A stretch of 64,000 nucleotides of DNA from Acidimicrobiia bacterium (GCA_027036355.1 JALVQZ010000250.1:3596-67595); one strand, 5' to 3'. Numbered from the stretch's first letter, positions 22,100 through 40,576 are shown. Notes: generated by a model from the letters alone, not told the origin. A program made the numbers and translations.

Positions 22100-22528
22100 T
22101 CACTGCTCCCGGATCTCGACGGTGACCGGTCGCGGCCCCGCCTTCGCGAACTCCAGCGTGAGGTCGACGACCGTGCCGGGAGCGATCTCGGTGGTCTTGT
22201 CGATGCACATCACATGCATCCCGCCGGGGGCGAGCTCGACGGTTCCGCCGGCAGGGATGTCGATCTGGTCGAGACGCTGCATCTTCATCGTTTGGTTCTC
22301 CATGATCGTCGTGTGGAGCTCGACCGCGCCGCAGGCATCGGTGGAGGCCGCCACGAGCGCATCGTCTTCGGCGCCGCCGACGATCGTCATGTAGAACGCG
22401 GCGTTGGTGGCGACCCGAGGCGATGGCCTGCCCCAAGCATCGCGGATCTCGACCGATCCACTCGGGGCCGAGCATGCCGCGAGGACCACGGCGAGTGAAA
22501 CGAGGGTGATCGACAGTGTTCGACGCAT
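22100..22528 (-). CDS. Copper chaperone PCu(A)C (DUF461) lipoprotein
   Basis: Signal peptide and Cys (LAACS), then an H/M-rich copper-binding motif (HTTIMENQTMKMQRLDQ...GGMHVMCID). Confidence 0.7.
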   Translation of the reverse strand: MRRTLSITLVSLAVVLAACSAPSGSVEIRDAWGRPSPRVATNAAFYMTIVGGAEDDALVAASTDACGAVELHTTIMENQTMKMQRLDQIDIPAGGTVELAPGGMHVMCIDKTTEIAPGTVVDLTLEFAKAGPRPVTVEIREQ

Positions 22529-23187
22529 CAGTGCTCCAGTAGGTACTCGATGTCGGCGGCGATCTCCTCGGAGGTGCCCTCGAACGGCAAGACGACCTTC
22601 AGGTAGCCCTCCCGATCCACGAGCATCAACGTGGCCGTGTGGTTCACCAGGTAGCCGGTGGCCGCCGATCCTTGCTCTGTCTCGTAGTAGACGCCATAGA
22701 CGGTCGCGACACGGTCGATCACGTCAGGAGGGCCGGTCACGCCGATGAACCGGGGATCGAAGTGGCGAACGTACTCGCTGACCTTCTCGGGCGTGTCACG
22801 CTCGGGATCGACCGACACCATCACCACGTTCACCTCGTCCGCTCGCTCGCCGAGCTGGTCCATCGCCCGGGCGAGCTTGGCCAGGGTCGTCGGGCAGACG
22901 TCGGGACAGAAGGTGTAGCCGAAGTACAGGACGACGACCTCGCCTTCGAAGTCCGACAGCGACACCGGTCCGTCCCCGGACTCGAGGCTGACCCGCGGGG
23001 CCTTCTCGCTGGACTGGATCACGCTCCCGTGGAACACGTAGGGTCGGAATCTGGGCATGATCACCTTGACGGCCAGGCCCGCCACCGCGGCGATCACCGC
23101 CAGGGTGATGCCGATGCTCAGGAGGCGTCGCGGCCTCGACCTTCTGTTGTCTCGAGTGGGTTGCTCGGTCACGGTCTCGGTATGCAT
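22528..23187 (-). CDS. SCO1/SenC-family copper chaperone (thioredoxin-like, CPDVCP)
   Basis: 219 aa from ATG 23187 (RBS gaggaagg). Motifs LYFGYTFCPDVCPTTL and a conserved His. The stop overlaps the PCuAC start (ATGA). Confidence 0.8.
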   Translation of the reverse strand: MHTETVTEQPTRDNRRSRPRRLLSIGITLAVIAAVAGLAVKVIMPRFRPYVFHGSVIQSSEKAPRVSLESGDGPVSLSDFEGEVVVLYFGYTFCPDVCPTTLAKLARAMDQLGERADEVNVVMVSVDPERDTPEKVSEYVRHFDPRFIGVTGPPDVIDRVATVYGVYYETEQGSAATGYLVNHTATLMLVDREGYLKVVLPFEGTSEEIAADIEYLLEH

Positions 23188-23197
23188 CGGTCCTTCC

Positions 23198-23869
23198 TCA
23201 GGGGTAGCAGAGGAACAGGTGGGCGGCCTCGTAGGCGACGGCTGCGGCGCCATGCGCATTGCGGATCTCGTCGGCGAGGACGTCGAGGTGCCGTACGATC
23301 CGGTCGGCATCCGACGTCTGGGTTTGGTAGCGATACTCGCCCCGAACCACGCCCCATCCATCGACCAGGACGAGGGCCGGGTCGAAGGAGAAGGTGCCAT
23401 CGTCCTGCTTCTCGAACCACGTCTTGAACCCGGCTCTCACGACATTGTCGACGTGCCCGGGTCGAGCAGTCGCCAGTACCCAGCGGTCGCCATCGGCGCC
23501 GATCGTTCTCGCGTAGGACCGGAGCCGCTCGGGGGTGTCGGTGTCGGGGTCGAACGAGATCGTCACGAAACGGATCTCGGTGTCGGGACCCATCTCGATC
23601 TCGTCGAGCCGGTCGATGATCTCTCGGACCGTCGCATTGAGACGATCACACGCAGATCCGCATTGCGAGTAGCCGAAGGTGTAGACCGTGACGCTCCCGC
23701 GAAGATCCTCCGAGGTGAGGGAGTCGCCGTTCTGGTCGACCAGGGAGAACCCGGGAGCGAGGCGGATCCTCGGCAGCACCTGGATGGGCTCGAACACCAC
23801 GAACGCGAGGGTCGCGAGGAGGATCGCGGCGACGGGGATCACGGTACCGAGGATCGCTTTCCTGTTCAT
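23198..23869 (-). CDS. Second SCO-family protein (CxxxC = CGSAC)
   Basis: Start at ATG 23869 (MNRKAILGTVIPVAAILLATLAFVV TM anchor). Motif YTFGYSQCGSACDRL. Confidence 0.7.
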   Translation of the reverse strand: MNRKAILGTVIPVAAILLATLAFVVFEPIQVLPRIRLAPGFSLVDQNGDSLTSEDLRGSVTVYTFGYSQCGSACDRLNATVREIIDRLDEIEMGPDTEIRFVTISFDPDTDTPERLRSYARTIGADGDRWVLATARPGHVDNVVRAGFKTWFEKQDDGTFSFDPALVLVDGWGVVRGEYRYQTQTSDADRIVRHLDVLADEIRNAHGAAAVAYEAAHLFLCYP

Positions 23870-23925
23870 AGGGCGGACCTGCCGATCGGAGATCTCGTGG
23901 GCTCGGGGCACGGTATCCTCGCGTC

Positions 23926-24381
23926 ATGATGCCTTGGCGGTCGCGTTCCCCTAGGGCCAATGGTCCTCATCGTCGCCGGAGTCCGCTGGTGGGTCTGCTC
24001 GCGGTCGTTGCGCTGGTCGTCGCTGCATGCGCCGCTCTGCCTCCGCAGCGCACCGATACCGGCGGCGCGCTCGCCGAGTCGTACCTCCTCAACGGCGTGG
24101 GACCCGGCGGCGTCGAGTACTCGGGCATCCTCGAGGTTTCTGCGACCGACTCGCCGTCGCGCTTCGATCTGCAGTGGATCGTCACCGGGGCGGTGCTCGA
24201 AGGCTCCGGAGTCCTCGAGGGCGACCAACTCGAGGCGGAGTGGTACACCGTCGAGGACCCGACGGAAGGCCCCCGCGGCGTGGTCGTCTACACGGTCATG
24301 CCCGACGGTGAGCTGCAAGGAGCCCGCACCGTCGCCGGATCCGATGGGGTGTTCACCGAGACGGCGGTTCCGGTCAAGTGA
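23926..24381 (+). CDS. Putative lipoprotein (hypothetical)
   Basis: LLAVVALVVAAC lipobox-like signal. 151 aa. No family assigned. Confidence 0.45.
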   Translation: MMPWRSRSPRANGPHRRRSPLVGLLAVVALVVAACAALPPQRTDTGGALAESYLLNGVGPGGVEYSGILEVSATDSPSRFDLQWIVTGAVLEGSGVLEGDQLEAEWYTVEDPTEGPRGVVVYTVMPDGELQGARTVAGSDGVFTETAVPVK

Positions 24382-24404: not shown

Positions 24405-26777
24405 TCATTCGAGGGTGAGGAGGAAGGCGACGAGATCGTCGATCTCCTGATCGGTGAGCAGTTCATCGAAGTTCTTCAACATCGCGTCGGGGAAGCCTTC
24501 CACGACGTAGGCGCTCGGATCGACGATCGACTGGCGCAGGTACTCCTTCGCCGACATCCCCGGTACGCGGTCCGCTGCTCGGGTCGCGACCCCGTCGAGG
24601 GACGGACCGACGACCACCTTCCCGGGCACGAGCGAGTGGCACACCCGGCAGCCCGAATTGTGGCCGAGGGTCGTCTCGAAGAACAGCGACTTGCCGACAT
24701 CGGCCCGGGAGCCGGTCCGGCTGTCGCTGTACGACAGTGCGAACACCTCGCCGCCGTCGAGTCCGACGGTGCCGTCGAACAGCAGCCACGGCCGGGTCTG
24801 CTCCTGGCGGTCGAACAGCTCCACTCGGACCGTGTGCTGACCGGGGGTCAGCTCGATCTGCTCGTACGCCAGTGAATGGGGGGCACCGTCGACCTCGGCG
24901 GGAGGGTAGGTCTCGTCCAGCACCACGGCGCCGTCGGCTTGAACGATCAAGCGGCTCGCCGTGCCCGCGGCGAGGTCGACCGGGAACCCGAAGCCCTCGA
25001 TGGGAGCCCCGCCCCGATGGTCCAAGGCGACCGTGACGAACGCTGCGTCCGTTGGTCGGGCGGTGAACGGCAACTGCGACGCGACGATCGACAGCACGGT
25101 GGCCAGGGCGACGAGCATCGCCACTCGGGCGAGTCTCGAAGGAGCCGGCCGGTCACATGGATCGGCGACGGGTTGAGATCCCGGATGGTCGAGCGAGAAC
25201 GTGAACTCGGTCGGTGCGACCCAGTCCGAGAACACCCGACCGAGGTATGGCTTCTTCAGCCGCGGGACCCGGGTGCGGTCGATGCGGGCTTGCATCCACG
25301 TGTTGCCCTCGCGGTTGGCGCAGTCCGCCGGAGGGCAGCCGAGGACCTGGACGTCGCCGGCGCCGGCATCGAGGGCGGTGCCGATGAGATCCGGATGCAC
25401 CATCCCGAGGCACGTCACCGGGATGACGTGAACCGGATGATCCGCGTCTTCGACGGATTCGCCGATGAGCGTCCCGCCGGAGAACACTGCGTGCCGTTCG
25501 CAGGTGTACACGATCCGAGGGGAAGAGCCGGTTGCGGCGAGTCGGCGGGTCTCGTCCCATAGCTCTTCGGCGGGGACCGGACCCAAGGTGAGCGCCTCGA
25601 CCGGGCAGCTCCCGATGCAGATCCCGCAAGAGACGCATCGATCATCGACGAGCGCAGCGAGTTGGCGATGGGGGCCGTTGTCGGTCGGGATCATCTCGAG
25701 GGCGCCGTAGGGACAGTCGGCTACGCACAGGGTGCACCCGGTGCACCGCTCGGGGTCGACGACGATCGGCTCGAGCGGGGGACGCCGCAGTGCCCACGGA
25801 AGCGCCGTCAACAGTCCCGCGACGACGACGAAGCCACCCCACACGAGCCCCGGTGGGAGACCCAGCCCGGGGGGCAGCAGGAACAGGTAGAACGGATCGA
25901 GCGGGATGGTGCCTGCGACGTGGCCCGGGTCGACCGGCGGCAGGATCCCGACCGGCCACAGGAGGGCCACCACGACGATCGCCCCTCCGATCGTCATCAT
26001 CCAGTACCTCGGGGGGAACACGAGCGGTCGGTTCAGCCTCTTCAGGTGGTAGTACAACAAGACGCCCACGCCGATCGATACGCCGGCATGGATGAAGAAC
26101 AACAGCAGGATGAACGGCCATCCCGTCTTGGCGACCGGGGTCAGCACGTTGTCGAGCAGGAAGTCGAGGCCGGCGGCGGAGCCGCCGATCGTGCGGGTCA
26201 GCAGGTCGTTGAGGGCTTGGGATCGACGGTCCCAGAGCAGCCAATAGCCGGTGACGCCGATCACCCAGACGAACACCATCATGACCACCCCGGTGGTCCA
26301 GGCCAGCCAGCGGGGCCCTCGGAAGCGGTCCTGGAACACCATGCGCCAGCCGTGGAGGAGGGAGGTGACGACCAGGGCCTGGGAGGCGTACCGGTGGACC
26401 GCCCGGATCACCCGTCCGACGAAGTTGGCTTCGAGACGGCTGATCGCGTCGTACGACGCAGAGAACCCGTACTGGAAGAAGAACGTGACGTAGATGCCGG
26501 TCGCCACCACGATCGCGAACAGGAACACCGAGATCGTTCCGGTGTGGTAGAGGGGATTGAGGCGGGGAGTGCCGACGGCCTTCCCGATCGGGCGCTCGAC
26601 TCGCAGTGTCGCCCGCTCCAGTCGGATCAGGGCCCTCCGCACCCGGTTGCTGGTGCGGAGGGCCCAATCGACCGACGGGCCGACGAGCTCGCGCGGACGC
26701 TTCCGATCCAACCTACGGAGCGATCCGCGGCGACGTCGCCGACATCCCGAAGATCTGGTCGATGAGCTGCGGTCCAT
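24405..26777 (-). CDS. Multidomain redox protein: cytochrome b (N-terminal di-heme membrane domain) + 2x[4Fe-4S] ferredoxin + MvhD/FlpD-like domain + TM + C-terminal mono-heme cytochrome c (CRVCH)
   Basis: 790 aa. The domain order read from the translation is: cytochrome-b-like TM helices with conserved His (HRYASQALVVTSLLHGW...); CTGCTLCVADCPY...CVSCGICIGSCP; IVYTCERHAVF...VIPVTCLGMVHPDL...VLGCPPADC (FlpD/MvhD-like); a hydrophobic helix; and a C-terminal CxxCH heme-c site. It is first (5'-proximal) in the same strand run as the ba3 oxidase genes. Confidence 0.65.
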   Translation of the reverse strand: MDRSSSTRSSGCRRRRRGSLRRLDRKRPRELVGPSVDWALRTSNRVRRALIRLERATLRVERPIGKAVGTPRLNPLYHTGTISVFLFAIVVATGIYVTFFFQYGFSASYDAISRLEANFVGRVIRAVHRYASQALVVTSLLHGWRMVFQDRFRGPRWLAWTTGVVMMVFVWVIGVTGYWLLWDRRSQALNDLLTRTIGGSAAGLDFLLDNVLTPVAKTGWPFILLLFFIHAGVSIGVGVLLYYHLKRLNRPLVFPPRYWMMTIGGAIVVVALLWPVGILPPVDPGHVAGTIPLDPFYLFLLPPGLGLPPGLVWGGFVVVAGLLTALPWALRRPPLEPIVVDPERCTGCTLCVADCPYGALEMIPTDNGPHRQLAALVDDRCVSCGICIGSCPVEALTLGPVPAEELWDETRRLAATGSSPRIVYTCERHAVFSGGTLIGESVEDADHPVHVIPVTCLGMVHPDLIGTALDAGAGDVQVLGCPPADCANREGNTWMQARIDRTRVPRLKKPYLGRVFSDWVAPTEFTFSLDHPGSQPVADPCDRPAPSRLARVAMLVALATVLSIVASQLPFTARPTDAAFVTVALDHRGGAPIEGFGFPVDLAAGTASRLIVQADGAVVLDETYPPAEVDGAPHSLAYEQIELTPGQHTVRVELFDRQEQTRPWLLFDGTVGLDGGEVFALSYSDSRTGSRADVGKSLFFETTLGHNSGCRVCHSLVPGKVVVGPSLDGVATRAADRVPGMSAKEYLRQSIVDPSAYVVEGFPDAMLKNFDELLTDQEIDDLVAFLLTLE

Positions 26778-28386
26778 AGGCCAGCAGGACCAGAACGGCG
26801 GTGCCGACCAGCCATGGCTTCCAGCTGTCGAGCCAGACCGGCGTTCGTTGCGGATCCTCGATCGACTCCGCGACGGGAACGTCCACGAACTCGCCTTCGG
26901 GGAGTTCCTTCTTGCGGAAGGCCGTCACGGCGACGACCACGATGGTCGCCATGATGCCGATCCACATCAGCGATCCGCCGAACCCGACGCGCCACAGGTA
27001 GCCGCTCCACTCCGCCGGCACGTAGGGCGCCAGACCCAACGTCGTGCGCCGGGGCGCTCCCAGCAGCCCCACGGTGTGCATCGCGTTCGAGAAGATCAGC
27101 ATCCCGACGAAGTACGTCCACACCCCGGCCAGGGCGACCTTCGGCTGCCACAGCGGCTTGTGGGTCAGATGGGGAACGAGCCAGAACGAGATGCCGATGA
27201 ACGAGAGCGTCACCGCCGAGGCCACGGTCAGGTGGAAGTGCCCGGGAACCCACGCCGTGTTGTGCAACACCAGGTTCACGTTGTAGGCGGCGTTGGCGAG
27301 GCCGCCGATGCCGCCGAACACGAACAAGATCCCGGCCAGCAACTGGGCGGTCACCGACGGGTTGCTCCAAGGAAGGGCCCTGATCCAACCGAACCGGCCC
27401 TTTCCACCGCGTTGCCTGGCTCCGTACTCGAGGCTGGCGATCACGGTGAAGAACGTCAGCAGCGACGGGAAGAAGACCGAGAAGGTCAAGATCGCGTGGA
27501 CGTACTTCCATCCTGCGGGAACGCCGGGATCGACGAACTGATGGTGGAACCCGAGGGGAACCGACAGGAGGAGGAACAGCCAGAACGCGAGCCTCGCCAG
27601 CGAGTCGCTGAACAGCTTGCCGTCGACCTGCTTGGGAAGCATGCCGTACCACGACACGTACGCAGGCAGCAGCCAGAAGTACACCAACGGATGGCCCGTG
27701 AACCAGAAGAAGGTCCGCGAGAGCTGCGGGTCGATACCGTCGGTCAGCCCCATCGACCAGGGCAGCAGCAGCCCGAGGATCTCGGCAGCGACGCCGAGCG
27801 TGGCGATCTGCCACATCACCATCGTGATGAGTGACGCGAAGGCGATGAACGGGGTGCGGGTCTTCGGGTTGTCCTTCCGCCACTGCCAGTAGGTCGCGTA
27901 GAACCCCCATCCTTCGATCCAGCTCCCGACGACCACCAGCGTCAGTCCCAGGTAGAACCACGTGCTGGCCTGCATCGGCGGGTAGAAGGTGAACAGCACG
28001 GTCGCCTTGTTGAGCAACAGCGGGACGGCGGCCATGAGCAGCCCGACCACCATCGTCCAGAACCCGAACTGGTTCAGCCCCGGGTACGCGAGACGGCGCT
28101 GGAACCCGCGGATGATCGCCACCGTGAGGAAGCCGGTGATGAAGAACGTCGTCCAGACGAGGGCGTTGAGCACTCCATGGAGGGTCAGCCCCTGGTAGTA
28201 CGACTGGATCCCGAACTTCTCGAGCGTCGGGTACAGGTCGAGGCCGGCGTGCTCGAGGGCCTGCAGCGGGCCGAAGAGGCTGCCGATGGTCAATGCCGCG
28301 AAGGCGAACACGAGATGGAGGCCGACGAACCGCCGTTCCTCTCGTGTCAGCGCATAGACAGGTGTCTTTGTCGTTGTTTCAGCCAC
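26713..28386 (-). CDS. Heme-copper oxidase subunit I (ba3-type cytochrome c oxidase)
   Basis: 557 aa. GTG start at 28386 (RBS aggaggg). Conserved His ligands and 12+ TM helices (…WFTGHPLVYFWLLP…HHQF…). Its start overlaps the last 64 nt of the upstream fusion gene. Confidence 0.9.
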   Translation of the reverse strand: MAETTTKTPVYALTREERRFVGLHLVFAFAALTIGSLFGPLQALEHAGLDLYPTLEKFGIQSYYQGLTLHGVLNALVWTTFFITGFLTVAIIRGFQRRLAYPGLNQFGFWTMVVGLLMAAVPLLLNKATVLFTFYPPMQASTWFYLGLTLVVVGSWIEGWGFYATYWQWRKDNPKTRTPFIAFASLITMVMWQIATLGVAAEILGLLLPWSMGLTDGIDPQLSRTFFWFTGHPLVYFWLLPAYVSWYGMLPKQVDGKLFSDSLARLAFWLFLLLSVPLGFHHQFVDPGVPAGWKYVHAILTFSVFFPSLLTFFTVIASLEYGARQRGGKGRFGWIRALPWSNPSVTAQLLAGILFVFGGIGGLANAAYNVNLVLHNTAWVPGHFHLTVASAVTLSFIGISFWLVPHLTHKPLWQPKVALAGVWTYFVGMLIFSNAMHTVGLLGAPRRTTLGLAPYVPAEWSGYLWRVGFGGSLMWIGIMATIVVVAVTAFRKKELPEGEFVDVPVAESIEDPQRTPVWLDSWKPWLVGTAVLVLLAYGPQLIDQIFGMSATSPRIAP

Positions 28387-28398
28387 GTTCCCTCCTGT

Positions 28399-28899
28399 CT
28401 ACGGTGCTTCCGTCACGGTCACGGCGCCTGCCATGACCGCATGGCCCAACCCGCAGTACTCGGTGCAGACGTACGGGTACACGCCGGGCTCGTCGAACGT
28501 CGTGCTCAGTTTCGACACCTGGCCGGGGATGGCCATGAAGTTGATGTTGGTGTCTTGGAGTTTGAAGCCGTGCTGGACGTCGGTCGAGGTGACGTAGAAC
28601 GTCACCTTCGCTCCGACCGGGACCTCGATCTCGTTCGGAGTGAACGAGAACCGATGGGCCAGGACGTACACCTCGTACTCCTCACCGGGAACGATCTCCC
28701 TGACGCCCGGTTCGGACCACGGTGGCTGCTCCGCGACCGTGTTCGGATCGACCCTGCGCTCCCTCGTCGGCACCTGGATCCCGAGCATGAACCCGGCGAC
28801 CGTCACCGCGGCGAAGAAGATCAGCAGCAGGATGACGGAGGCGATCATCCATCGTTTCTCCGTCGGATCGATGTGGATGTGTTCCGTCGTCGCGCTCAT
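28399..28899 (-). CDS. Cytochrome c oxidase subunit II, short ba3-type (CuA site CTEYCGLGHAVM)
   Basis: 166 aa from ATG 28899. Single N-terminal TM, cupredoxin fold, CuA ligands H...C..C...H.M. Confidence 0.8.
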   Translation of the reverse strand: MSATTEHIHIDPTEKRWMIASVILLLIFFAAVTVAGFMLGIQVPTRERRVDPNTVAEQPPWSEPGVREIVPGEEYEVYVLAHRFSFTPNEIEVPVGAKVTFYVTSTDVQHGFKLQDTNINFMAIPGQVSKLSTTFDEPGVYPYVCTEYCGLGHAVMAGAVTVTEAP

Positions 28900-29042
28900 A
28901 TCGTCGCTCCCCGCGTCACCAGGATCGCCCACACGGAGAACCACAGGATCAGCATGATGAGCACGAACACAACGGTGAGCGCAACCGTACCCGTCGGCTT
29001 GAAGCGCTCCACCTCGACGGACCCACCGTCTTGCGTGGCCAT
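28896..29042 (-). CDS. ba3-type oxidase subunit IIa (single-TM micro-protein)
   Basis: 48 aa. MATQDGGSVEVERFKPTGTVALTVVFVLIMLILWFSVWAILVTRGATI matches the length and pattern of Thermus CbaD-like subunit IIa. RBS aaggaggg. It overlaps the subunit II start. Confidence 0.5.
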   Translation of the reverse strand: MATQDGGSVEVERFKPTGTVALTVVFVLIMLILWFSVWAILVTRGATI

Positions 29043-29250: not shown

Positions 29251-29832
29251 CTATCCCGAGCCGGAGGTCGCGAACGGCGGTCCTTCGAGGAGGGGCTCCA
29301 TGATCTTCTCGAACGGCACTCCCAATGCCGTCGCCACCGTGGAGGTGTACTTCAACAGCGCCACCGTCGTGACCATCTCGACGACCTCGGCGTCGGTCCA
29401 TCCGAGCGAGCGCAGCTCGTCGACCATGTCGTCGGTGACCCCCGCCGGTCGGGCCGCGACCGTGCGAGCGAAGGCGAGGGCGGCGTTGCCCTTGTCGTCG
29501 AGACGGTCCGATCGGTCCCCGACGGCGATCGCCGCGCAGTCCTCGACGCTCCAGCCGAAACGGAACAGCGCCAGCATGTGGGCGGCGGTGCAGTAGTCGC
29601 ACTCGCCGGCGGCTGCGGTCACCACGAACATCGCCCGCTTCAGCTCCTCGCTCAGCGTGCCCTCCTTCATCGTCACCAAGCTCAGGTCCCACAGCGCGTT
29701 CGTCGTCTCCGGAAGGGGCGCCAACGCCTGCTGCAACGTCGGCACCATGCCGTAGTAGCCGGCGACCCGATCGAACACCTCCTTGGTGCGGCCCGTGGCC
29801 GTGGCGGGATCTTGCAAGGGCACTCTCGTCAT
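29251..29832 (-). CDS. Carboxymuconolactone decarboxylase / AhpD-like family protein (CxxC ECDYC)
   Basis: 193 aa from ATG 29832. ...FVVTAAAGECDYCTAAHM... is typical of AhpD-like peroxidase-related proteins. Confidence 0.65.
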   Translation of the reverse strand: MTRVPLQDPATATGRTKEVFDRVAGYYGMVPTLQQALAPLPETTNALWDLSLVTMKEGTLSEELKRAMFVVTAAAGECDYCTAAHMLALFRFGWSVEDCAAIAVGDRSDRLDDKGNAALAFARTVAARPAGVTDDMVDELRSLGWTDAEVVEMVTTVALLKYTSTVATALGVPFEKIMEPLLEGPPFATSGSG

Positions 29833-30767
29833 CGTTGGCTCCTGGTCTCGTCGGGTCCCGTCTCGACGGGAAGGTCCTCTCTGGCGGCCCACTCCTCCCA
29901 CGAGCCGTCGTACAACGCCGCGTCGTAGCCGAGGAGATGGAGAACGAACAGGTCGAACGCGCCGTACACGCCGCCGCCGCAATAGGTGATGATCCGTTCG
30001 CCGTCGCCGACGACGCCAGCCCACCGCTCGGCCAGCTCGGTGGGGGAGCGGAGCATCCAGGTGGCCGGGTCGAGGTTCTCGGGCGCCGGGACGTTCCGGG
30101 CTCCCGGGATGTGGCCGGCCCGAAGACCCGGATAGAGCGACACGTGCCCTGCGTAGAAGGGTTCCGGAAGCGCGTCCACGATCACGGTTCCCGGGTCCGC
30201 GATCGCCGCCATCACGTCGTCGACCTCGACCCGGAGGTCGGGACGGACTCGAGGGGTGAAGGAGGCGGTGAGCGGTTCGGGCCGGCCCGTTTCGACCGGG
30301 AGCCCCTCGTCGAGCCACCGCACGAAGCCGCCATCGAGGAGGCGCACCCGATCGTGTCCGTGGTAGCGAAGCGCCCACCACAGGCGCGCGGCCCACGTTC
30401 CGCCTTCGGTGTCGTAGATCACCACCTCGCGGTCGCTGCCGATCCCCGCCGACGCCATCTTGGCGGCGAAGGACTCCGGCGGCAGGATCCGGGTGGGATC
30501 GGCCGGATCGCGAAGTTCGTCGAGGTCGACGAAGACGGCGCCCGGGATGTGTCCGTCGGCGAACTCCGCCGCGCCCGGGACGGCTCGGAAGCGGCCACGA
30601 TCGTCGAGCTCGACCGTGTAGCGGGTGTCCACGATGGTCAGGTCGCCGGAGCCGAGCCGTTCGGCCAGCGCGGCAGGCGAGATCAACGCCGTATCGGCAT
30701 GGACGAACCCCTGGCCGGCCTGACCCTCCATGGGACGCAACGTAGGGCCGTCACCGGCAGACGTCAA
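29829..30767 (-). CDS. Two-domain rhodanese: 3-mercaptopyruvate/thiosulfate sulfurtransferase (active site CGGGV)
   Basis: Tandem rhodanese domains with catalytic Cys in ITYCGGGVYGAF. The stop overlaps the start of the AhpD-like gene. Confidence 0.8.
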   Translation of the reverse strand: MTSAGDGPTLRPMEGQAGQGFVHADTALISPAALAERLGSGDLTIVDTRYTVELDDRGRFRAVPGAAEFADGHIPGAVFVDLDELRDPADPTRILPPESFAAKMASAGIGSDREVVIYDTEGGTWAARLWWALRYHGHDRVRLLDGGFVRWLDEGLPVETGRPEPLTASFTPRVRPDLRVEVDDVMAAIADPGTVIVDALPEPFYAGHVSLYPGLRAGHIPGARNVPAPENLDPATWMLRSPTELAERWAGVVGDGERIITYCGGGVYGAFDLFVLHLLGYDAALYDGSWEEWAAREDLPVETGPDETRSQR

Positions 30768-30874
30768 CGACGCTCGGGCACCCCCGCGCCCTGAGCGCGA
30801 CGCTGTCAGATTTCCCGCCCATGGTCCGTATGCATCACATAGGATGGAACGGAATGCGGACCTGGGAGGGAACC

Positions 30875-33145
30875 ATGCGGCGTCGATCGATCCTGCTGGC
30901 GGTGGCGATGAGCCTCGCGTCGGCCATCGTGGCGGGTCCCGTCGGGGCGCAGCCGACCGGTCCGATCCCGTTGTCGGCGGTCCCGTGGGACAAGGTCTCG
31001 TCCACGCCCCCGATCCGTCAGCTCGAGATCCTCGGTTTCAACGAGACCGAGCAACGACTCATCAACTACGCCGGACACGAGGTCGCGGATCCTCAGGAGT
31101 ACCGGTTCGGTGACGACCCCGCCGGGGAGGCCACCTTGGATCTCCCCGGTACGAGGGTGGAACGGTTCGGCGCCATGCGATTCATGTGGGAGGGAACCGA
31201 ACGCATGCCGTTCTGGCCGGTCGACTCCCTCGTCGACGGTTCGACGGTGTTCCTGCGGTCGGGCGAGGGCATCATGCCGGGAGTGGAGTACACCCTCTTG
31301 TGGACGATGACGGAGCGTCCGTACGACCCGGTCGGCATGGAGTTCTTCGTCAACCAAGGCTTCGTCGTCAGTTTCCCGGGCGCTCCGGGCTGGCAGCCGC
31401 TCGATCAGTTCCCCGGCGACACATGGGACGGTGGTTACCGGATGCCGACCGTCCAGTACGGTCCCGACCCCTGGCGCCTGGACCTGTTCCGGACCGATCC
31501 CGAGACCGGGCAGTTCCCGTCCGACCAGTGTGACTGCATCGGGGCGATCGATGGCAACGTCTTCTTCCTGGTCATCCCCTCTCACCAACTCGCCAACACG
31601 GTCGCCGACTACGACATCGCCGACATGCGGATCGGCTACCACATCCACCATCACGATGGAACCTACGGCGCCACCGACGATTCGCTCTCGTACGTGTCGA
31701 CCTACCCCGAGATCCCCGGCCGGACCTATGACTCCCTTCTGCCGTTCGTCGTTTCGGACCCCATCACCGTGGGGACGACCACGGCGCCGGCTCCGACGAC
31801 CACGACCACCACCACGACCACGACCACGACCACGACGGTCGCGCCGACGACCACGCTCACGGCAACGGGAGACGCTACCGCCGGCGGCAGCGAAGGATCC
31901 GGTGGTTCCCTCCCGCTGCCGCTGATCTTCGTCGCCGTCGTGCTCCTGGTGATCTTCGGATGGTGGTGGTGGAACCGTCGCGGAAAGGGCGATGGGGCCG
32001 GCCCCGATGACGGGGAGGACCCCCGCGACCTACCGCCCCCAGCGGTCTATGGGGAGGAGCAAGAACACACGAGCTGTGACTGGCAGGTCTACTTCGTCGA
32101 CGCCAAGCGTGGTCGGGTGCCTCTGCGCAAGGTCGGCGTCGCCTCCCACGAATGTTGCAGCTACGTGATCGAGGTCGCCACCGAGACCCTCGAGCACGAA
32201 CAGGCGGCCCGAGGCCGACAGGACGCCGGCGACGAACGGCTCCGCATGCCCGACTTCGACTTCGCCTGGGACATGCTCGACCTCTCCGGTCACGCTTCCG
32301 CTCGGAGCGGTCCCCTCGGCCGGCAGGACTGGATGCACGGTGATGGAGACCCGATCGATCAACGAGCGCTGGGAACCGACACCGCGTACCTGCAGCGGTT
32401 CCAGGGACAGGAACCGCCCGACGTCGCTGCGCACCTCCTTCACCGAGAGGAGACGACGATCACGGTCGACCTGAACGCCGGATGCCCGGACCACGACAAC
32501 GAGTACACGCTGTTCGGTTCCGCAGAACTGTCCATGCTCGCCACCCAGGAGTGCACCAACGACGACCCTGCGGCCCCATGTCCGGTCGAGCTGAGTTCGG
32601 GCGGCTGGTACTACGGAAGGGTCGGCGACGACCTGGACGCCCAGGTGTGGGACGAGAACCTCGGGGATCTCGACGACCTCGAGCGGGGTTCCGACCAGCC
32701 GAGGTGGTACGAGTTGAGCCACCGGCACGTCGATGACCTGGCCCGGGAGAGGCCGACCTACGAGCACACCAGCCGCGACTCCGATAGGGCGACGATCCGC
32801 GCCGACTCCACGAAGGTCAGCGTCTACAGCTCGATCCTCGCCGATGCCGGTGTCGTCGTGCCCGTCGATGTCTGGCCGACCACCGAGCGAGTCACCGCAC
32901 ATCTCGAGGGCTCCTTGCACTACGGCATCGACGTGAAAGGCCGAATGGAAGCCGGCGCATGTGCCGAGACCTCCTGCGGCGGACACGGCGAGTGCCGATG
33001 TCGGCCGAGTTTCGAGCTGAGCATCACCGCGGGGTCCGCCACGATCGTGGTCGACGACACCGTCCACCACCTCCGCCGTCGACCACCGGCTGCGGATCGC
33101 AACGATCCTCCGACGCCAGGGACACAGCGGTGGGTGCTGGCATGA
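30875..33145 (+). CDS. Large single-pass membrane protein: secreted N-domain, poly-Thr linker, TM helix, Cys/His-rich cytoplasmic domain (hypothetical)
   Basis: ORF 30821..33145. Likely start ATG 30875 (MRRRSILLAVAMSLASAIVAGPVGAQ signal). Thr run TTTTTTTTTTTTTT, TM LPLPLIFVAVVLLVIFGWWWW, and a C-terminal domain of about 380 aa rich in Cys and His. Confidence 0.5.
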   Translation: MRRRSILLAVAMSLASAIVAGPVGAQPTGPIPLSAVPWDKVSSTPPIRQLEILGFNETEQRLINYAGHEVADPQEYRFGDDPAGEATLDLPGTRVERFGAMRFMWEGTERMPFWPVDSLVDGSTVFLRSGEGIMPGVEYTLLWTMTERPYDPVGMEFFVNQGFVVSFPGAPGWQPLDQFPGDTWDGGYRMPTVQYGPDPWRLDLFRTDPETGQFPSDQCDCIGAIDGNVFFLVIPSHQLANTVADYDIADMRIGYHIHHHDGTYGATDDSLSYVSTYPEIPGRTYDSLLPFVVSDPITVGTTTAPAPTTTTTTTTTTTTTTVAPTTTLTATGDATAGGSEGSGGSLPLPLIFVAVVLLVIFGWWWWNRRGKGDGAGPDDGEDPRDLPPPAVYGEEQEHTSCDWQVYFVDAKRGRVPLRKVGVASHECCSYVIEVATETLEHEQAARGRQDAGDERLRMPDFDFAWDMLDLSGHASARSGPLGRQDWMHGDGDPIDQRALGTDTAYLQRFQGQEPPDVAAHLLHREETTITVDLNAGCPDHDNEYTLFGSAELSMLATQECTNDDPAAPCPVELSSGGWYYGRVGDDLDAQVWDENLGDLDDLERGSDQPRWYELSHRHVDDLARERPTYEHTSRDSDRATIRADSTKVSVYSSILADAGVVVPVDVWPTTERVTAHLEGSLHYGIDVKGRMEAGACAETSCGGHGECRCRPSFELSITAGSATIVVDDTVHHLRRRPPAADRNDPPTPGTQRWVLA

Positions 33146-36928: not shown

Positions 36929-38821
36929 ATGCGAAAGGGACGCACACGGCTGACCGAACCGCTCGTCCGCGATGGCGACGGCTTCCGGACGGCAACCTGG
37001 GACGAAGCCCTCGATCGGGCCGCCGCCGGGTTCCGAGCCACCGTGGACACCCACGGCCCCACGGCGTTCGGGATGTTCTCGTGCTCGAAGGCGACCAACG
37101 AGATGAACTTCGTCGCCCAGAAGTTCGCCAGGGTCGCGATCGGCTCGAACAACATCGACAGCTGCAACCGCACCTGACACGCTCCTTCCGTCGTCGGTCT
37201 GGCGACAGTGTTCGGAGCGGGAGGCGGTACGAGCTCCTACGAGGAGATCGAGCACACGGATCTCATCGTCCTGTGGGGCTCGAACGCCCGCGCCGCGCAT
37301 CCGATCTTCTTCCACCACCTCCTGAAGGGCATCGACAACGGGGCCCGCATGATCGCCATCGACCCGCGGCGCACCGAATCGGCGGCCTGGGCGGACCTGT
37401 GGCTCGGCCTCGACGTCGGCACCGACATCGCGCTCGCCAACGCCGTCGGACGCGAGATCATCGCCGCCGGGCTCACCAACGACGACTTCATCGCTCGGGC
37501 CACCACCGGGTTCGACGCCTACGCCGAGGCGGTCGAGCCCTACACGCTCGAGCACGCGGCCGAGCTCACCGGCGTCCCCGCCGAAGCGATCCGGGAGCTC
37601 GCCCACGCGTACGCCAAGGCCCCGACCGCGCAGCTCTGCTGGACCCTCGGGATCACCGAGCACCACAACGCCTCCGACAACGTGTTCGCGCTCATCGACC
37701 TGGCGCTGCTCACCGGGCACGTCGGTCGGTACGGGTCGGGTCTCGTTCCGATCCGGGGCCAGAACAACGTCCAAGGGGGCGGCGACATGGGCGCCCTGCC
37801 GAACAAGCTCCCCGGCTTCCAGGACGTCGCCGACGACGACGCTCGCCGGCGCTTCGAGGAAGCGTGGGGATGCACCGTCCCCGCCGAGCCGGGCTGGCAT
37901 CTCTCCCAGATGTTCGAAGCGATGGAGCGCGGCGACCTGCGGGCGCTGTACGTGATCGGCGAGAACCCTGCCCAATCGGAAGCCGACGGCACGCGGGCCC
38001 GCCGGGCGCTCGAAGGACTCGACCATCTCGTCGTCCAGGACATCTTCCTCACCGCGACCGCCGAGCTGGCCGACGTGGTCCTCCCCGCCGGGGCCGCATG
38101 GGCAGAGTCGGAGGGAACCGTCACATCGTCCGAGCGTCGGGTCCAGCGGGTGCGGCGGGCCGTGCCGCCGCCGGGCAACGCCAGGGACGACACCGACATC
38201 ATCGTCGATCTGGCCCGCCGTCTCGGTCACGACTGGGGTCATCCCTCCGCAGAGGAGGTCTGGGACGAGCTGAGGTCGTTGTCGCCGATCCACGCCGGCA
38301 TGAGCTACCGGCGTCTCGAGGAGCTCGGCGGTCTCCGATGGCCGTGCCGGGACGAGGACGACCCCGGCGCGCTGTTCCTCCACGGCCGGCTCTGGGAGGA
38401 CCCGCCCCGCGGCCCGAAAGCCCCCTTCACGCCGGTCGAGCACGACCCCCCGAAGGACGAGCTGACCGACGACTTCCCGATCCGGCTCACCACCGGCCGG
38501 CATCTCGACTCGTACAACACCGGGGTCCAGTCCGGCCGGTACCGGTCGCCCCGCCGGACCGGCGGCACCATCGACCTGTCACCCGAAGACGCCGCTTCCC
38601 TGGGGCTCGCCGCCGGTGACCGGGCTCGGATCACGTCGCGGCGGGGAAGCGTCGTCGCCCCGGTGCGGATCGACCGGTCGTTGCGGCCCGGCTTGGCCTT
38701 CATGGCGTTCCACTACCCCGAGGACGTGGACACGAACCGGCTGACCTTGGACGAGTGGGACCCGAAGTCGGGAACGGCCGAGTTCAAGGCCACCGCGGTG
38801 CGCATCGAGAAGGAGGCCTAG
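36929..38821 (+). CDS. fdhA: Formate dehydrogenase catalytic (Mo-bisMGD) subunit with in-frame TGA at 37175-37177 (putative selenocysteine)
   Basis: ORFs 36905..37177 and 37208..38821 are in the same frame, separated only by TGA. The context is SCSKATNEMNFVAQKFARVAIGSNNIDSCNRT-TGA-HAPSVVGLATVFGAGGGTSSYEEIEHTDLIVLWGSN, which reproduces the FdhF/FdnG ...CARV-U-HGPSVAGL... selenocysteine motif. ATG 36929 follows ggagaggagg. The N-terminal Fe-S domain of typical alpha subunits is absent here. Confidence 0.7.
37178..37222 (+). promoter_or_regulatory. Candidate SECIS-like hairpin immediately 3' of the in-frame TGA
   Basis: CGCTCC (37180-37185) can pair with GGAGCG (37214-37219), enclosing further pairable segments (ccgtcg...cgacag). 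The fold was not computed. Confidence 0.3.
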
Positions 38822-40576
38822 GTGGACATCCGTCTCCCCGCCGCAGTGGCGACCGACGACGAACGCCGCGCCGTCGACCGGATCCTGGGACCGCCGACGA
38901 CCGGATGGGAGGGCGGTGAACGGCGCCGTGTCGACGGTCACGTCGCGACCGGCGGCCACGCGGCCCGGGCTCGTCGCCATCTCCTCCTGCCCGTGCTCCA
39001 CGCCCTCCAGGACGACATCGGGTGGATCTCCGACGGCGCGGTCGGGTACGTCTGCGAGCGCCTCGTCGTTCCCGCGGCCGAGGTCTACGGGGTGGCGACC
39101 TTCTACGGGCTCCTGTCGGTGGCCGAGGCGCCGCCCGTCGCCATCCATCTCTGCGACGACATCGTGTGCCGGACGGCAGGAGCCAAGGAGCTGTTCACCG
39201 CACTGGCGGACACCGTCGGCCCCGAAGGCTCCTCGGACGGCAGCCGCACGTGGCATCGGAGCAACTGCCTGGGACAGTGCGACGCGGCTCCCGCAGCGTT
39301 CGTCCAGGCGGCCGGAGAGGGGCGACGGACCGTGATCCGGGCCGATCTCGACCGACTCGCCGCAGCGCCGACCGACGACCGCGAACCGGCCTACGCGGTG
39401 ATCGGCGATCCGGTGCTGACGGCCCGGTTCGGCGCCGCCGACCCGGGCGACCTGGACGCCTATCGAGCTTCCGGCGGGTACGTCGCGCTCCGTCGAGCCC
39501 TCGAGATCGGTCCCGACGCCGTCGTCGCCATCGTCGAGGCGTCGGGACTTCGGGGTCGTGGCGGCGCCGCGTTCCCGACCGGTCGCAAATGGCGGGCGGT
39601 CGCGGACACCGAAGCCGCCGAACGCCTCGTCGTATGCAACGCCGACGAGTCCGAGCCCGGAACGTTCAAGGACCGCATGCTGATGGAGCGCGACCCCTTC
39701 GCGGTCGTCGAAGGCCTGACCATCGCCGGTCACGCCACCGGGGCCACGAAGGGCTTCATCTACGTGCGAGGCGAGTACCCCGACGCCGAGAACCGACTGG
39801 TTGCCGCCATCGAGGAAGCCGAAGCGGCCGGCCTCCTCGGCGACGACGTCCTCGGCTCCGGGTTCCCGTTCCACATCGAGCTGCGCCGCGGCGCGGGCGC
39901 CTACATCTGCGGTGAGGAGACGGCGCTGTTCGAGTCCATCGAGGGCTTCCGAGGCGAACCGCGAGCCAAACCCCCGTACCCGACGACCGACGGCCTGTTC
40001 GGGAGACCGACGGCCGTCAACAACGTCGAGACCCTGGCGGCGGCCGTCGCGATCGTCGCCGAGGTGCCGGGTGCGGCGAACACGAAGCTGTTCTGCGTCT
40101 CGGGGCACGTCGAGGCCCCCGGGGTGGTCGAAGCGCCCTTCGGGGTGACCGTGCGGGAGCTGCTGACGGTGGCCGGATCCGCTCGTCCCCCTCAGGCCGT
40201 CCTCTTCGGAGGTGCGGCCGGTCGGTTCCTGGCCCCCGCCGAACTCGACGTTCCGCTCGGGTACGAGCCGCCGTCGCCGCCGCTGGGCTCGGGCGCGGTC
40301 GTCGCGTTCGGTCCCGGCGTCGACATGGACGACGTCGTCCAGCGGATCGCCGAGTTCTTCCGAGACGAATCGTGCGGACAGTGCGTCCCGTGCCGGGAAG
40401 GGACGGTGCGCCAGGACGAAGCCCTTCGTCGTCTCGTCGCCGGATCCGACGAGCGCGGTCTGATCGACGAGATCGCCCGGGTGATGCGGGACGCGTCGAT
40501 CTGCGGGCTCGGCCAGACCGCGGCCGAGGCGGTCACCTCGGCGATCGCCCTGGGACTGGTCGGAGGGGCGCGATGA
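38822..40576 (+). CDS. NAD-linked formate dehydrogenase beta subunit: fused NuoE-like (2Fe-2S) and NuoF-like (FMN/NADH, 4Fe-4S) domains
   Basis: 584 aa. The N-terminal thioredoxin-like 2Fe-2S Cys pattern is followed by GRGGAAFPTGRKW, the glycine-rich NAD/FMN motifs and the C-terminal 4Fe-4S ESCGQCVPCREG of NuoF/FdsB proteins. Confidence 0.85.
   Translation: MDIRLPAAVATDDERRAVDRILGPPTTGWEGGERRRVDGHVATGGHAARARRHLLLPVLHALQDDIGWISDGAVGYVCERLVVPAAEVYGVATFYGLLSVAEAPPVAIHLCDDIVCRTAGAKELFTALADTVGPEGSSDGSRTWHRSNCLGQCDAAPAAFVQAAGEGRRTVIRADLDRLAAAPTDDREPAYAVIGDPVLTARFGAADPGDLDAYRASGGYVALRRALEIGPDAVVAIVEASGLRGRGGAAFPTGRKWRAVADTEAAERLVVCNADESEPGTFKDRMLMERDPFAVVEGLTIAGHATGATKGFIYVRGEYPDAENRLVAAIEEAEAAGLLGDDVLGSGFPFHIELRRGAGAYICGEETALFESIEGFRGEPRAKPPYPTTDGLFGRPTAVNNVETLAAAVAIVAEVPGAANTKLFCVSGHVEAPGVVEAPFGVTVRELLTVAGSARPPQAVLFGGAAGRFLAPAELDVPLGYEPPSPPLGSGAVVAFGPGVDMDDVVQRIAEFFRDESCGQCVPCREGTVRQDEALRRLVAGSDERGLIDEIARVMRDASICGLGQTAAEAVTSAIALGLVGGAR

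Follow-up and report, generated by a model that had tools for sequence, protein, structure and literature searches.

A 64,000-nucleotide stretch of an Acidimicrobiia genome (GCA_027036355.1, JALVQZ010000250.1:3596-67595; hereafter the window) contains an operon of four co-directional minus-strand genes, which encode subunit IIa (CoxIIa), subunit II and subunit I of a ba3-type heme-copper oxidase and, as the last gene, a single polypeptide in which a cytochrome b domain, a ferredoxin domain with two [4Fe-4S] motifs, an MvhD-like domain, a further transmembrane (TM) helix, an Ig-like domain and a cytochrome c are fused. The reading that we favour, to which we assign a probability of roughly 45%, is that this fusion protein is a Rieske-less quinol:ba3 module, i.e., a hard-wired substitute for complex III, in which a cytoplasmic iron-sulfur (Fe-S) arm stands at the end of the b-heme chain in place of Qi. 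To our knowledge, little is known about the electron supply to B-family oxidases outside Thermus, although these enzymes are widespread. The region has a G+C content of ~68%, and its nearest relatives are metagenome-assembled genomes (MAGs) of Acidimicrobiia. Coordinates of all features are collected in Table 1.

The genomic pairing of the fusion gene with the oxidase, including the genes for copper assembly, is obligate. In a set of 85 related loci, which includes the window's own twin and one duplicate, COX2-COX1 lies directly upstream of the fusion gene in 76, with a gap of ~5-360 nt and two exceptions of 1.1 and 2.1 kb; the remaining nine loci have no more than 778 nt of upstream DNA. Since the fusion gene follows COX2-COX1 in 76 of the 85 loci, the tie to the oxidase is stronger than could be known to the authors of a preliminary description of this locus, made from the sequence alone, who had proposed it. 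SCO1 and PCuAC genes are common around the cluster, and a small lipoprotein-like gene adjoins the fusion gene, on either strand, in 71 loci; because of this adjacency, the lipoprotein may be a subunit or an assembly factor. A separate small cytochrome c gene follows the fusion gene in ~30 of the 85 loci and is absent from the window.

The family is widespread. A search of protein databases yielded 848 proteins (representatives of 90%-identity clusters) at E<=1e-5; the best 120 of these are ~720-830 aa long and share 44-81% identity with the query over 91-99% of its length, bar one partial sequence, and in most sources the homologues bear the name "hydrogenase iron-sulfur subunit" or "ferredoxin". 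In a scan of one genome per species, relatives were located at at least 557 places. The best 80 of these all come from uncultured organisms, nearly all of them represented by MAGs, and belong to Acidimicrobiia and to Chloroflexota (Anaerolineae, Caldilineae and Candidatus Villigracilis).

The 64-kb window was found to contain neither a Rieske homologue or CxHxGC...CxxH motif nor a second cytochrome b, nor any further open reading frame (ORF) with a CxxCH motif, in line with the preliminary description, which had noted the lack of a Rieske protein and of a separate cytochrome c. Likewise, in the related loci no Rieske gene is located between COX1 and the downstream genes, and any Rieske gene that occurs nearby is part of a different operon, which has a cytochrome b gene itself. 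In 14 of the 85 loci, the cluster has as its neighbour a Rieske/cytochrome b operon whose first gene encodes a GltD-like NAD(P)-Fe-S flavoprotein; this operon is absent from the window.

There are only two in-frame starts for the fusion gene: ATG 26777, which gives 790 aa and a 65-nt overlap with subunit I, and TTG 26711, which gives 768 aa and lies one base past the subunit I stop codon (TAG-G-TTG). The ATG start was rejected, as the N-termini of homologues and the database gene call favour TTG 26711, and the product is likely to be the 768-aa protein; residue numbers refer to this form unless the 790-aa numbering is mentioned. An identical 768-aa database protein (P0001) is present on another assembly. 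The four same-strand genes that had been described before, i.e., a 48-aa subunit IIa, a short CuA subunit II, subunit I and a large fusion, were all recovered by ORF reading and Pfam searches, with several corrections: the fusion gene, said to lead the operon, is the last gene; the 790-aa product is indeed the longest ORF, while the protein itself is likely to have 768 aa from TTG 26711; and the reported overlap of the subunit I start with the end of the fusion gene, from which co-translation had been argued, was misread, since it is the end of subunit I that the longest fusion ORF overlaps by 65 nt.

Concordant domain assignments for the fusion protein were obtained with Pfam, with NCBIfam and with a profile search against PDB sequences. 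In the 790-aa numbering, the Pfam matches are Cytochrome_B at 71-186 (2e-15), two Fer4 domains at 338-397, FlpD/MvhD at 424-502 (1e-11) and Cytochrom_C at 695-789 (4e-6). In an alignment of 105 full-length homologues with 44-81% identity, the four heme His, the eight Fer4 Cys, the four Cys of the MvhD domain and the CxxCH motif are invariant. The AlphaFold2 (AF2) model that was built from these 105 homologues has a predicted local distance difference test (pLDDT) score of 89.5 and a predicted template modelling (pTM) score of 0.84, and is confident over all domain junctions. In this model, six TM helices at residues 53-302 are followed by the ferredoxin domain, the MvhD domain, a seventh TM helix (TM7), a beta-sandwich and the cytochrome c, with the boundaries given in Table 1. 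The domains named in the preliminary description are all present, in the order in which it listed them; it had omitted the conserved Ig-like domain of ~120 aa between the last TM helix and the cytochrome c. Arg is abundant at the N-terminus of the fusion protein and in the loops that follow helices B, D and F, and because the CxxCH domain requires the periplasm for heme attachment, the Fe-S arm is predicted to be cytoplasmic. The resulting topology, with six TM helices, Fe-S domains in the cytoplasm, TM7 and heme c in the periplasm, is self-consistent in the model; the same placement of the Fe-S domains and heme c had been suggested earlier, and both the order of the TM helices and AF2 agree with it.

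The oxidase is, by its sequence, the CuB and Tyr motifs, the short CuA subunit II and the presence of subunit IIa, assigned to the B-family (ba3-type) heme-copper O2 reductases. As a member of this family, it would be expected to use heme b and heme a3 (or As) and to pump protons while reducing O2. Subunit I matches Thermus thermophilus ba3 at 1e-142 over residues 17-548, versus only ~1e-12 for A-family chains. It reads from a GTG start at 28386 to a TAG stop at 26715-26713 and contains GHPLVY, with the active-site His-Tyr pair, FFWFTGHPLVYFWLLP, and LGFHHQF, which provides the two His ligands of CuB. It is by the active-site Tyr of GHPxVY that O2 reductases can be told apart from B-family-derived NO reductases (PMC11214002). 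Because the tyrosine of GHPLVY is kept, subunit I is considered to be of the O2 reductase type. Subunit II, which matches subunit II of T. thermophilus ba3 at 6e-39, has an intact CuA motif, CTEYCGLGHAVM, and an upstream His (DVQHGF), both read from the sequence. CoxIIa starts with an ATG at 29042 that is preceded by a GGAGG site, and its stop codon overlaps the ATG of subunit II as ATGA. A scan of the operon for promoters and terminators gave no signal above chance.

The best sequence match of the cytochrome b domain is cytochrome b6 (4e-22). The heme ligands H106/H120 and H208/H222, both with the spacing Hx13H, align with the b6 ligands and are invariant in the 105 family sequences as well as in the 251 sequences of the superfamily alignment described below. 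When the model was compared to the PDB with Foldseek, the top matches were actinobacterial QcrB (9gy6_B and 6hwh_Y, 315-354 aligned columns); cytochromes b of bc1 complexes aligned over ~290-315 columns and the four-helix b6 over only ~195. As full-length cytochromes b align over far more columns than b6, TM5 and TM6 are taken to be helices E and F. Between these two helices, at the start of a short ef helix, lies the motif P-x-D272-P-F-Y-L-F-x-x-P (codon of D272, 25896-25898), in which D272, L276 and P280 are invariant in the 105-sequence alignment. Position 272 is Asp in 241 of 251 superfamily members, and the residues that follow are mostly W-F-Y; position 273, mostly Trp in this superfamily sample, is Pro in the ba3-linked subfamily that includes the window (D-P-F-Y), and a common form of the motif is D-[PW]-F-[YF]. 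The D-W-F-Y of the superfamily corresponds to the PDWF variant of the PEWY Qo motif (Kao and Hunte 2014, PMC4122944). In the model and the alignments, Qo-type elements, namely helices E and F and the motif with its acidic residue, appear to be retained. Canonical Qi ligands as in bc1 (His, Asp and Ser) could not be identified in the cytochrome b of the fusion protein.

One further residue of this domain was considered as a cofactor ligand. H56 (codon 26544-26546, minus strand) is His in 101 of the 105 ba3-linked sequences; its counterpart in the alignment with b6 is Cys35, to which heme cn is covalently attached. In the superfamily, this position is mostly occupied by H, Y, Q or W, all of them hydrogen-bond donors. 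A role of His56 as ligand of a heme cn-like cofactor was rejected as unlikely, and a heme ci is unlikely as well, because position 56 varies in this manner and helix D has the bc1-type spacing Hx13H, not Hx14H.

The cytoplasmic arm comprises three predicted clusters, two [4Fe-4S] clusters and one of the MvhD type. The ferredoxin domain, which in the AF2 model begins ~12 residues after helix F, resembles the C-terminal ferredoxin domain of HdrA, and all of its eight Cys are essentially invariant in the 251 superfamily members; the MvhD-domain residues C404, C434, C459 and C464, putative ligands of a [2Fe-2S] cluster, are conserved in nearly all of these sequences. The pair of Fer4 and MvhD domains matches the C-terminus of HdrA2 at 3e-22, and the MvhD domain matches the MvhD chain 9sw2_D at 2e-10. 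In the annotated neighbourhoods of the window's twin and ten other relatives there is no hydrogenase or heterodisulfide reductase (Hdr) gene; the nearest flavoprotein genes in the neighbourhoods of relatives are NuoF-, GltD- or SQR-like (sulfide:quinone reductase-like).

On the periplasmic side, TM7 would return the chain to the periplasm, where it continues with the Ig-like beta-sandwich. H565 in this domain is kept in 17 of 18 cytochrome c-bearing representatives and is mostly H or Y in the long forms that have no cytochrome c. In the class I cytochrome c, C688-x-x-C691-H692 is invariant, and M744, the likely sixth ligand, is conserved in at least 90% of the sequences. The cytochrome c domain of Rhodothermus caa3 subunit II (1w2l; 1.6e-12) is among its closest solved relatives.

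The ba3-linked family belongs to a wider superfamily. An exhaustive search with residues 1-515 of the fusion protein yielded 344 representatives at E<=1e-30; the superfamily alignment comprises 251 sequences. We distinguish the following three architectures: (i) proteins of ~740-800 aa with a C-terminal CxxCH, i.e., the ba3-linked family of the window; (ii) proteins of ~640-730 aa that contain TM7 and the Ig-like tail, without heme c; (iii) proteins of ~480-560 aa that consist of the cytochrome b-Fer4-MvhD core only. At L086, the one core-only locus compared, the next downstream gene encodes a module of a TM helix plus an Ig-like domain, and a gene of similar size occupies the same downstream position at L090. 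Because L086 encodes this module separately, and L090 is similar, the TM-Ig module appears to be part of the system in any architecture. A menaquinone biosynthesis gene lies beside a core-only relative.

Six remote members, whose database names are mostly those of Nitrospinota, Nitrospirota and Deltaproteobacteria MAGs, were looked up. Four of the six lie beside heme-copper oxidase genes; the contigs of the other two are ~7 kb long, too short to tell, and one of them carries a PCuAC gene. At L088 and L091, paralogue A, a gene of the NuoF family (FMN and [4Fe-4S]; 470 bits to TIGR01959) and paralogue B come a few genes at most after COX2-COX1, and a second subunit I lies further on. Both paralogues carry the TM-Ig tail without heme c, and the gene boundaries within this triad (L088 4617-10121, L091 5556-11112) overlap or nearly abut, which suggests a heterodimeric cytochrome b complex with an NAD(H) module. 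The L090 locus, which adjoins nirS and heme d1 genes, contains CtaA, COX1, UbiA, SCO1, the gene for the core protein, that for the TM-Ig module and another COX1, and at L092 the superfamily gene is flanked by SCO1, UbiA and COX1. The first subunit I at L088 (2634-4169), L090 (5221-6951) and L091 (1951-3486) has GH(A/S)SQQ in place of GHPxVY and has no active-site Tyr; those of L090 and L091 are near nirS-type or heme d1 genes. Because the active-site Tyr is missing (criterion of PMC11214002), these three enzymes are candidate NO reductases; they may be B-family-derived and eNOR-like, and share the same partner protein.

The mechanism that we favour can be represented as follows. The six-helix cytochrome b domain would oxidize menaquinol in the Qo-type pocket at its periplasmic face. 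One electron would pass to the cytochrome c domain of the same polypeptide, which TM7 and the Ig-like domain hold in the periplasm, and from there to CuA of subunit II, while the other would cross the membrane through hemes bL and bH. The b-heme chain would end in the cytoplasmic arm, with two [4Fe-4S] clusters and then the MvhD-type cluster, where a bc complex has its Qi site, and through the arm the chain would be joined to a redox partner in the cytoplasm, for which a flavoprotein linked to NAD(P) is the most likely candidate. Electrons may flow in the arm in either direction, with the low-potential electron leaving through it or a cytoplasmic reductant feeding into it. Starting with the best-supported step, we infer that heme c reduces CuA, based on the analogy to caa3 oxidases and on the absence of any other cytochrome c in the operon; that a single transmembrane path is made up of the b hemes and the three clusters, since Fer4 starts ~12 residues past helix F; that menaquinol is oxidized at Qo; and that MvhD docks a flavoprotein. 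The SQR-like gene of 17 Anaerolineae loci and the menaquinone biosynthesis gene mentioned above are links to the quinone pool that support this reading. A quinol module without Rieske was one of two possibilities raised in the preliminary description; with helices E and F and a Qo-type motif with an invariant Asp in its favour, it stands as one of two surviving alternatives.

Several observations weigh against menaquinol oxidation by the fusion protein. A quinol at Qo would have neither a Rieske cluster nor any other obvious acceptor of high potential close enough for a hydrogen bond. The Ig-like domain has neither a redox fold nor conserved Cys. A comparison with hhalign of TM5-6 to two cytB_C-type sets from the loci and to PetD gave probabilities below 1%; because this profile-profile comparison is not significant, the case for equating D272 with the PEWY glutamate is made by the motif, by secondary structure and by the number of columns aligned in Foldseek. 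The cd1 helix reads ERAQVLN where bc1 and b6f have a Y/F-W-G/A stretch, and its Arg163 is highly conserved (165 of 251 superfamily sequences); given this difference from bc1/b6f, the pocket is remodelled and may not bind quinol. A gene for a partner of the arm is absent from the operon and from the 10 kb examined on either side. Finally, if the arm serves as an outlet, ferredoxin-type clusters and NAD+ are uphill from heme bH by our own estimate from textbook potentials.

The strongest competing explanation, on balance an unlikely one, is a transmembrane conduit that does not use quinol, in which electrons of NAD(P)H, via a flavoprotein, or of ferredoxin would pass through MvhD, the two [4Fe-4S] clusters, bH, bL and heme c to CuA. 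The quinone pool would be bypassed at a low energy yield, and the system would serve in redox balancing or in scavenging of O2, or of NO in relatives. All three clusters are strictly conserved across the superfamily, MvhD is by family a connector between proteins, and the NuoF-family gene at L088 and L091 is located between the two paralogues, beside oxidase genes. The path NADH > Fe-S > b hemes > heme c > CuA > O2 is downhill overall, ferredoxin-type clusters usually have low potentials, and B-family oxidases have a high affinity for O2. Conversely, a four-helix bundle suffices for a wire, so that the near-invariance, in 251 sequences, of helices E and F, of the ef loop and of the acidic Qo residue would be left unexplained. 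Also, there is no flavoprotein partner gene in or near the operon, nor close to the fusion gene in most of the 85 loci; bL, judged from known bc1 structures, would be too distant from the periplasmic surface for fast transfer unless the Qo pocket is occupied; and export of electrons would, by our own estimate, cancel most of the charge separation by the oxidase. A conduit from the cytoplasm was the second possibility in the preliminary description. The conservation of all 12 cluster Cys and the position of NuoF between the paralogues speak for this idea, while the hydrogenase or heterodisulfide reductase proposed there as the electron source is unsupported, no such genes being found in any neighbourhood examined.

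A mechanistically new variant, which we hold to be rather unlikely, is quinone-based electron bifurcation in the absence of a Rieske cluster, in which menaquinol at the Qo-type site would send one electron downhill to heme c, CuA and O2, and the energy set free would push the second, via the b hemes and the Fe-S/MvhD arm, to a low-potential cytoplasmic acceptor, either NAD(P)+, via a NuoF- or GltD-type flavoprotein, or ferredoxin. If this were true, respiration would make low-potential reductant directly, and the same partner would serve B-family-derived NO reductases in other phyla.

A Q cycle of the bc type is improbable, and the least favoured of the mechanisms considered. Here quinol would be oxidized at Qo, bH would reduce quinone at a Qi-like site, and the arm would be an extra cytoplasmic inlet, similar to the proposed feeding of heme cn of b6f by ferredoxin in cyclic flow, so that NAD(P)H:quinone and quinol:oxidase activities are combined. 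Every conserved element would be used and the energy yield would be normal; position 56 (His in 101 of 105 sequences, mostly hydrogen-bond donors in the superfamily) would suit a contact with quinone or a heme propionate; and the neighbouring Rieske/cytochrome b operons of 14 loci carry the GltD-like flavoprotein in the equivalent place. Against this mechanism stand the lack of identifiable canonical Qi ligands and the bc1-type Hx13H spacing of helix D, which makes a heme ci unlikely; moreover, the Fer4 domain, so close after helix F, may fill the Qi region, and, as in the favoured reading, there is no Rieske equivalent. The last alternative, that the fusion is an artefact of a frameshift or missed boundary joining two or more genes, as suggested by the boundary-like 65-nt overlap with subunit I, or else a chance neighbour of the oxidase, can be dismissed, being refuted by the identical twin on another assembly, the hundreds of full-length homologues (105 of the same architecture aligned, relatives at at least 557 places in species-representative genomes), the confidence of AF2 across the junctions and the gene order conserved in two phyla; the preliminary description had itself named an artefact of this kind as one of the outcomes that would overturn it.

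The cytochrome b-FeS-MvhD core is not new. Kao and Hunte 2014 (PMC4122944) devoted a few sentences to a "PDWF-FeS clade", in which cytochrome b is joined to a 4Fe-4S domain and MvhD, without a Rieske gene in the cluster, and named proteins of Magnetospirillum and Turneriella. Based on domain architecture and the absence of Rieske, the core in the window is assigned to this clade: the two share the cytochrome b, 4Fe-4S dicluster and MvhD core, the lack of a Rieske gene and the Asp in position 2 of the Qo motif. The fusion protein described here differs in the addition of TM7, the Ig-like domain and cytochrome c, in the D-P-F-Y motif and in the tie to a B-family oxidase. Neither a function nor a gene context was given for the clade in the 2014 paper (PMC4122944). 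In a full-text literature search, which left most subscription journals outside its coverage, we found nothing on the function of the core fusion, on the oxidase link or on a version bearing cytochrome c. Thus, in the literature found, the constant partnership with heme-copper oxidases, the cytochrome c-bearing subfamily and the NuoF triad are undescribed, whereas the core fusion is already known. The architecture, which had been called unusual, is therefore less so in its core, noted in 2014, and a Rieske/cytochrome b operon adjoins 14 of the 85 loci; the cytochrome c-bearing form does appear to be undescribed.

With the cytochromes b of bc1, b6f and QcrB, the fusion protein shares the four-His di-heme bundle, helices E and F and the Qo-type motif, b6 being the best match in sequence and QcrB in structure. 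It differs from them in lacking Rieske, helices G and H and recognizable Qi ligands, in the remodelled cd1 and in the Fe-S arm fused after helix F. In the actinobacterial bcc-aa3 supercomplex, as would be the case here, the oxidase is wired via a membrane-held cytochrome c, with no soluble carrier. The caa3 oxidases also have a tethered class I cytochrome c that feeds CuA, as the fusion protein would by analogy; however, theirs is located on subunit II of an A-family enzyme, whereas here it is on the cytochrome b partner of a B-family enzyme.

Anammox bacteria reportedly have Rieske/cytochrome b complexes with an NAD(P)-binding Fe-S flavoprotein subunit, in which the electrons of quinol are said to be split between a high-potential c-type branch and NAD(P)+. 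As in those complexes, cytochrome b in the fusion protein is predicted to connect on its cytoplasmic face with Fe-S clusters, to which some relatives would add a flavoprotein for NAD(H), and electron splitting of this type is the nearest existing mechanistic idea. The anammox-type complexes, however, keep Rieske, their Fe-S flavoprotein is a separate GltD-like subunit, and the mechanism is a proposal in both systems. In NarGHI, di-heme succinate:menaquinone and fumarate reductases, QmoABC and HdrA2/QmoB, an outer quinone site, two b hemes and a cytoplasmic Fe-S chain are likewise combined; in contrast to the bc-type cytochrome b of the fusion protein, the membrane anchors of these enzymes are of the NarI, SdhC or HdrE type. 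They have no periplasmic heme c output to an oxidase, and the fusion operon, for its part, encodes no catalytic cytoplasmic subunit. Alternative complex III (ActABCDEF; ACIII) is also a Rieske-less route from menaquinol to a heme-copper oxidase and occurs in some of the same phyla, but there is no homology, as ACIII is built of a membrane subunit of the NrfD type that interacts with quinol, a molybdopterin-like Fe-S subunit, and multiheme (pentaheme) and monoheme cytochromes c. No ACIII domain (NrfD-type, molybdopterin-family Fe-S or multiheme cytochrome c) was present among the Pfam matches of the four operon genes or their neighbours.

Table 1. Positions of the operon genes, fusion-protein domains and adjacent genes in the window (residues refer to the 768-aa form).
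Feature	Coordinates	Strand	Description	Evidence
CoxIIa	28896..29042	-	subunit IIa of B-family oxidase, 48 aa, one TM helix	PF08113 5e-5
Subunit II	28399..28899	-	166 aa, short CuA cupredoxin without cytochrome c domain	PF00116
Subunit I	26713..28386	-	557 aa, B-family (ba3-type) O2 reductase	PF00115 8e-90
Fusion protein	24405..26711	-	768 aa (longest ORF to 26777, 790 aa)	cytochrome b, 2x[4Fe-4S], MvhD, TM7, Ig-like, cytochrome c
Cytochrome b domain	25791..26645	-	helices A-F, residues 23-307	cytochrome b6 match, Foldseek QcrB, conservation
Ferredoxin-type domain	25527..25766	-	two CxxCxxCxxxC motifs, residues 316-395, predicted cytoplasmic	Fer4 families
MvhD/FlpD-like domain	25188..25517	-	residues 399-508, predicted cytoplasmic	PF02662, 45.4 bits vs cutoff 22.3
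TM7	25080..25142	-	seventh TM helix, residues 524-544	AF2; hydropathy scan of relatives
Ig-like beta-sandwich	24723..25073	-	residues 547-663 (~120 aa), conserved, predicted periplasmic	AF2
Cytochrome c	24408..24704	-	class I, residues 670-768	PF00034 above cutoff
Lipoprotein-like gene	23926..24381	+	small predicted lipoprotein, LIC10280-like, function unassigned	lipobox VAAC; NCBIfam NF050085 1e-10, under family cutoff
SCO1/SenC	23198..23911	-	copper chaperone	PF02630 2e-18; kept near operon in relatives
Second SCO1/SenC	22528..23187	-	copper chaperone; longest ORF to 23400, 219-aa gene called in twin contig	PF02630 1e-42
PCuAC	22100..22528	-	copper chaperone, CuA assembly	PF04314 2e-33

The two SCO1 genes and PCuAC share the strand of the oxidase, and the lipoprotein-like gene on the opposite strand, for which no Pfam domain was found, sits between them and the operon. 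Directly upstream of the oxidase operon (29251-30767, minus strand) are genes for a double-rhodanese protein, similar to 3-mercaptopyruvate sulfurtransferase, and an AhpD/CMD-family protein. A link to sulfur metabolism through these genes was rejected, as they are conserved in none of the 85 related loci. An unrelated rhodanese with a single domain is encoded after paralogue B at both L088 and L091. Beyond this, the window contains a 774-aa ORF (30821-33145, plus strand) whose N-terminus is signal-like and which has 14 consecutive threonines, a TM segment and a C-terminal half rich in Cys and Asp. At 37208-41418 (plus strand), crude ORF calls reveal formate dehydrogenase/NuoG-like genes in an unusual order, i.e., Molybdopterin plus Molydop_binding, then a NuoE+NuoF fusion, then a gene with Fer2_4, Fer4 and Molybdop_Fe4S4. 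The NuoE+NuoF fusion protein is 36.7% identical to NuoF of L088 and is a conceivable candidate for the partner of the Fe-S arm.

The SQR-like flavoprotein gene, found ~1 kb downstream in 17 of the 85 loci, all of Anaerolineae, encodes a 478-aa Pyr_redox_2 protein with weak similarity to type III sulfide:quinone reductase. It lies ~0.8-1 kb after the fusion gene in L039, L040, L043, L044, L048, L053, L054 and others, and is also present at L089 (5620-7056). With this neighbour, a short chain in which sulfide feeds the oxidase by way of quinone is conceivable. The Rieske/cytochrome b operons headed by the GltD-like gene end in a multiheme cytochrome c (L002 2481-7254; L003 5966-11290; L005 13357-18680), and an operon of the same type occurs in the distant relative L088 (14003-18121). 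Anammox bacteria are reported to have this operon type as well.

The pairing recurs in hundreds of uncultured bacteria and looks like an undescribed way of feeding respiratory oxidases: ba3 and the fusion protein occur at at least 557 places in species-representative genomes of Acidimicrobiia and Chloroflexota, groups that are common in oceans, soils, groundwater and wastewater plants, and three of the four heme-copper enzymes beside remote relatives look like NO reductases. If the fusion protein is a Rieske-less quinol-oxidizing unit, it would be a third kind of "complex III", beside the bc type and ACIII. Should the Fe-S arm exchange electrons with NAD(P)H, a cytoplasmic redox pool would be linked directly to a terminal oxidase, and such a link would affect the energy yields that are assumed in models of uncultured bacteria, as well as N2O production.

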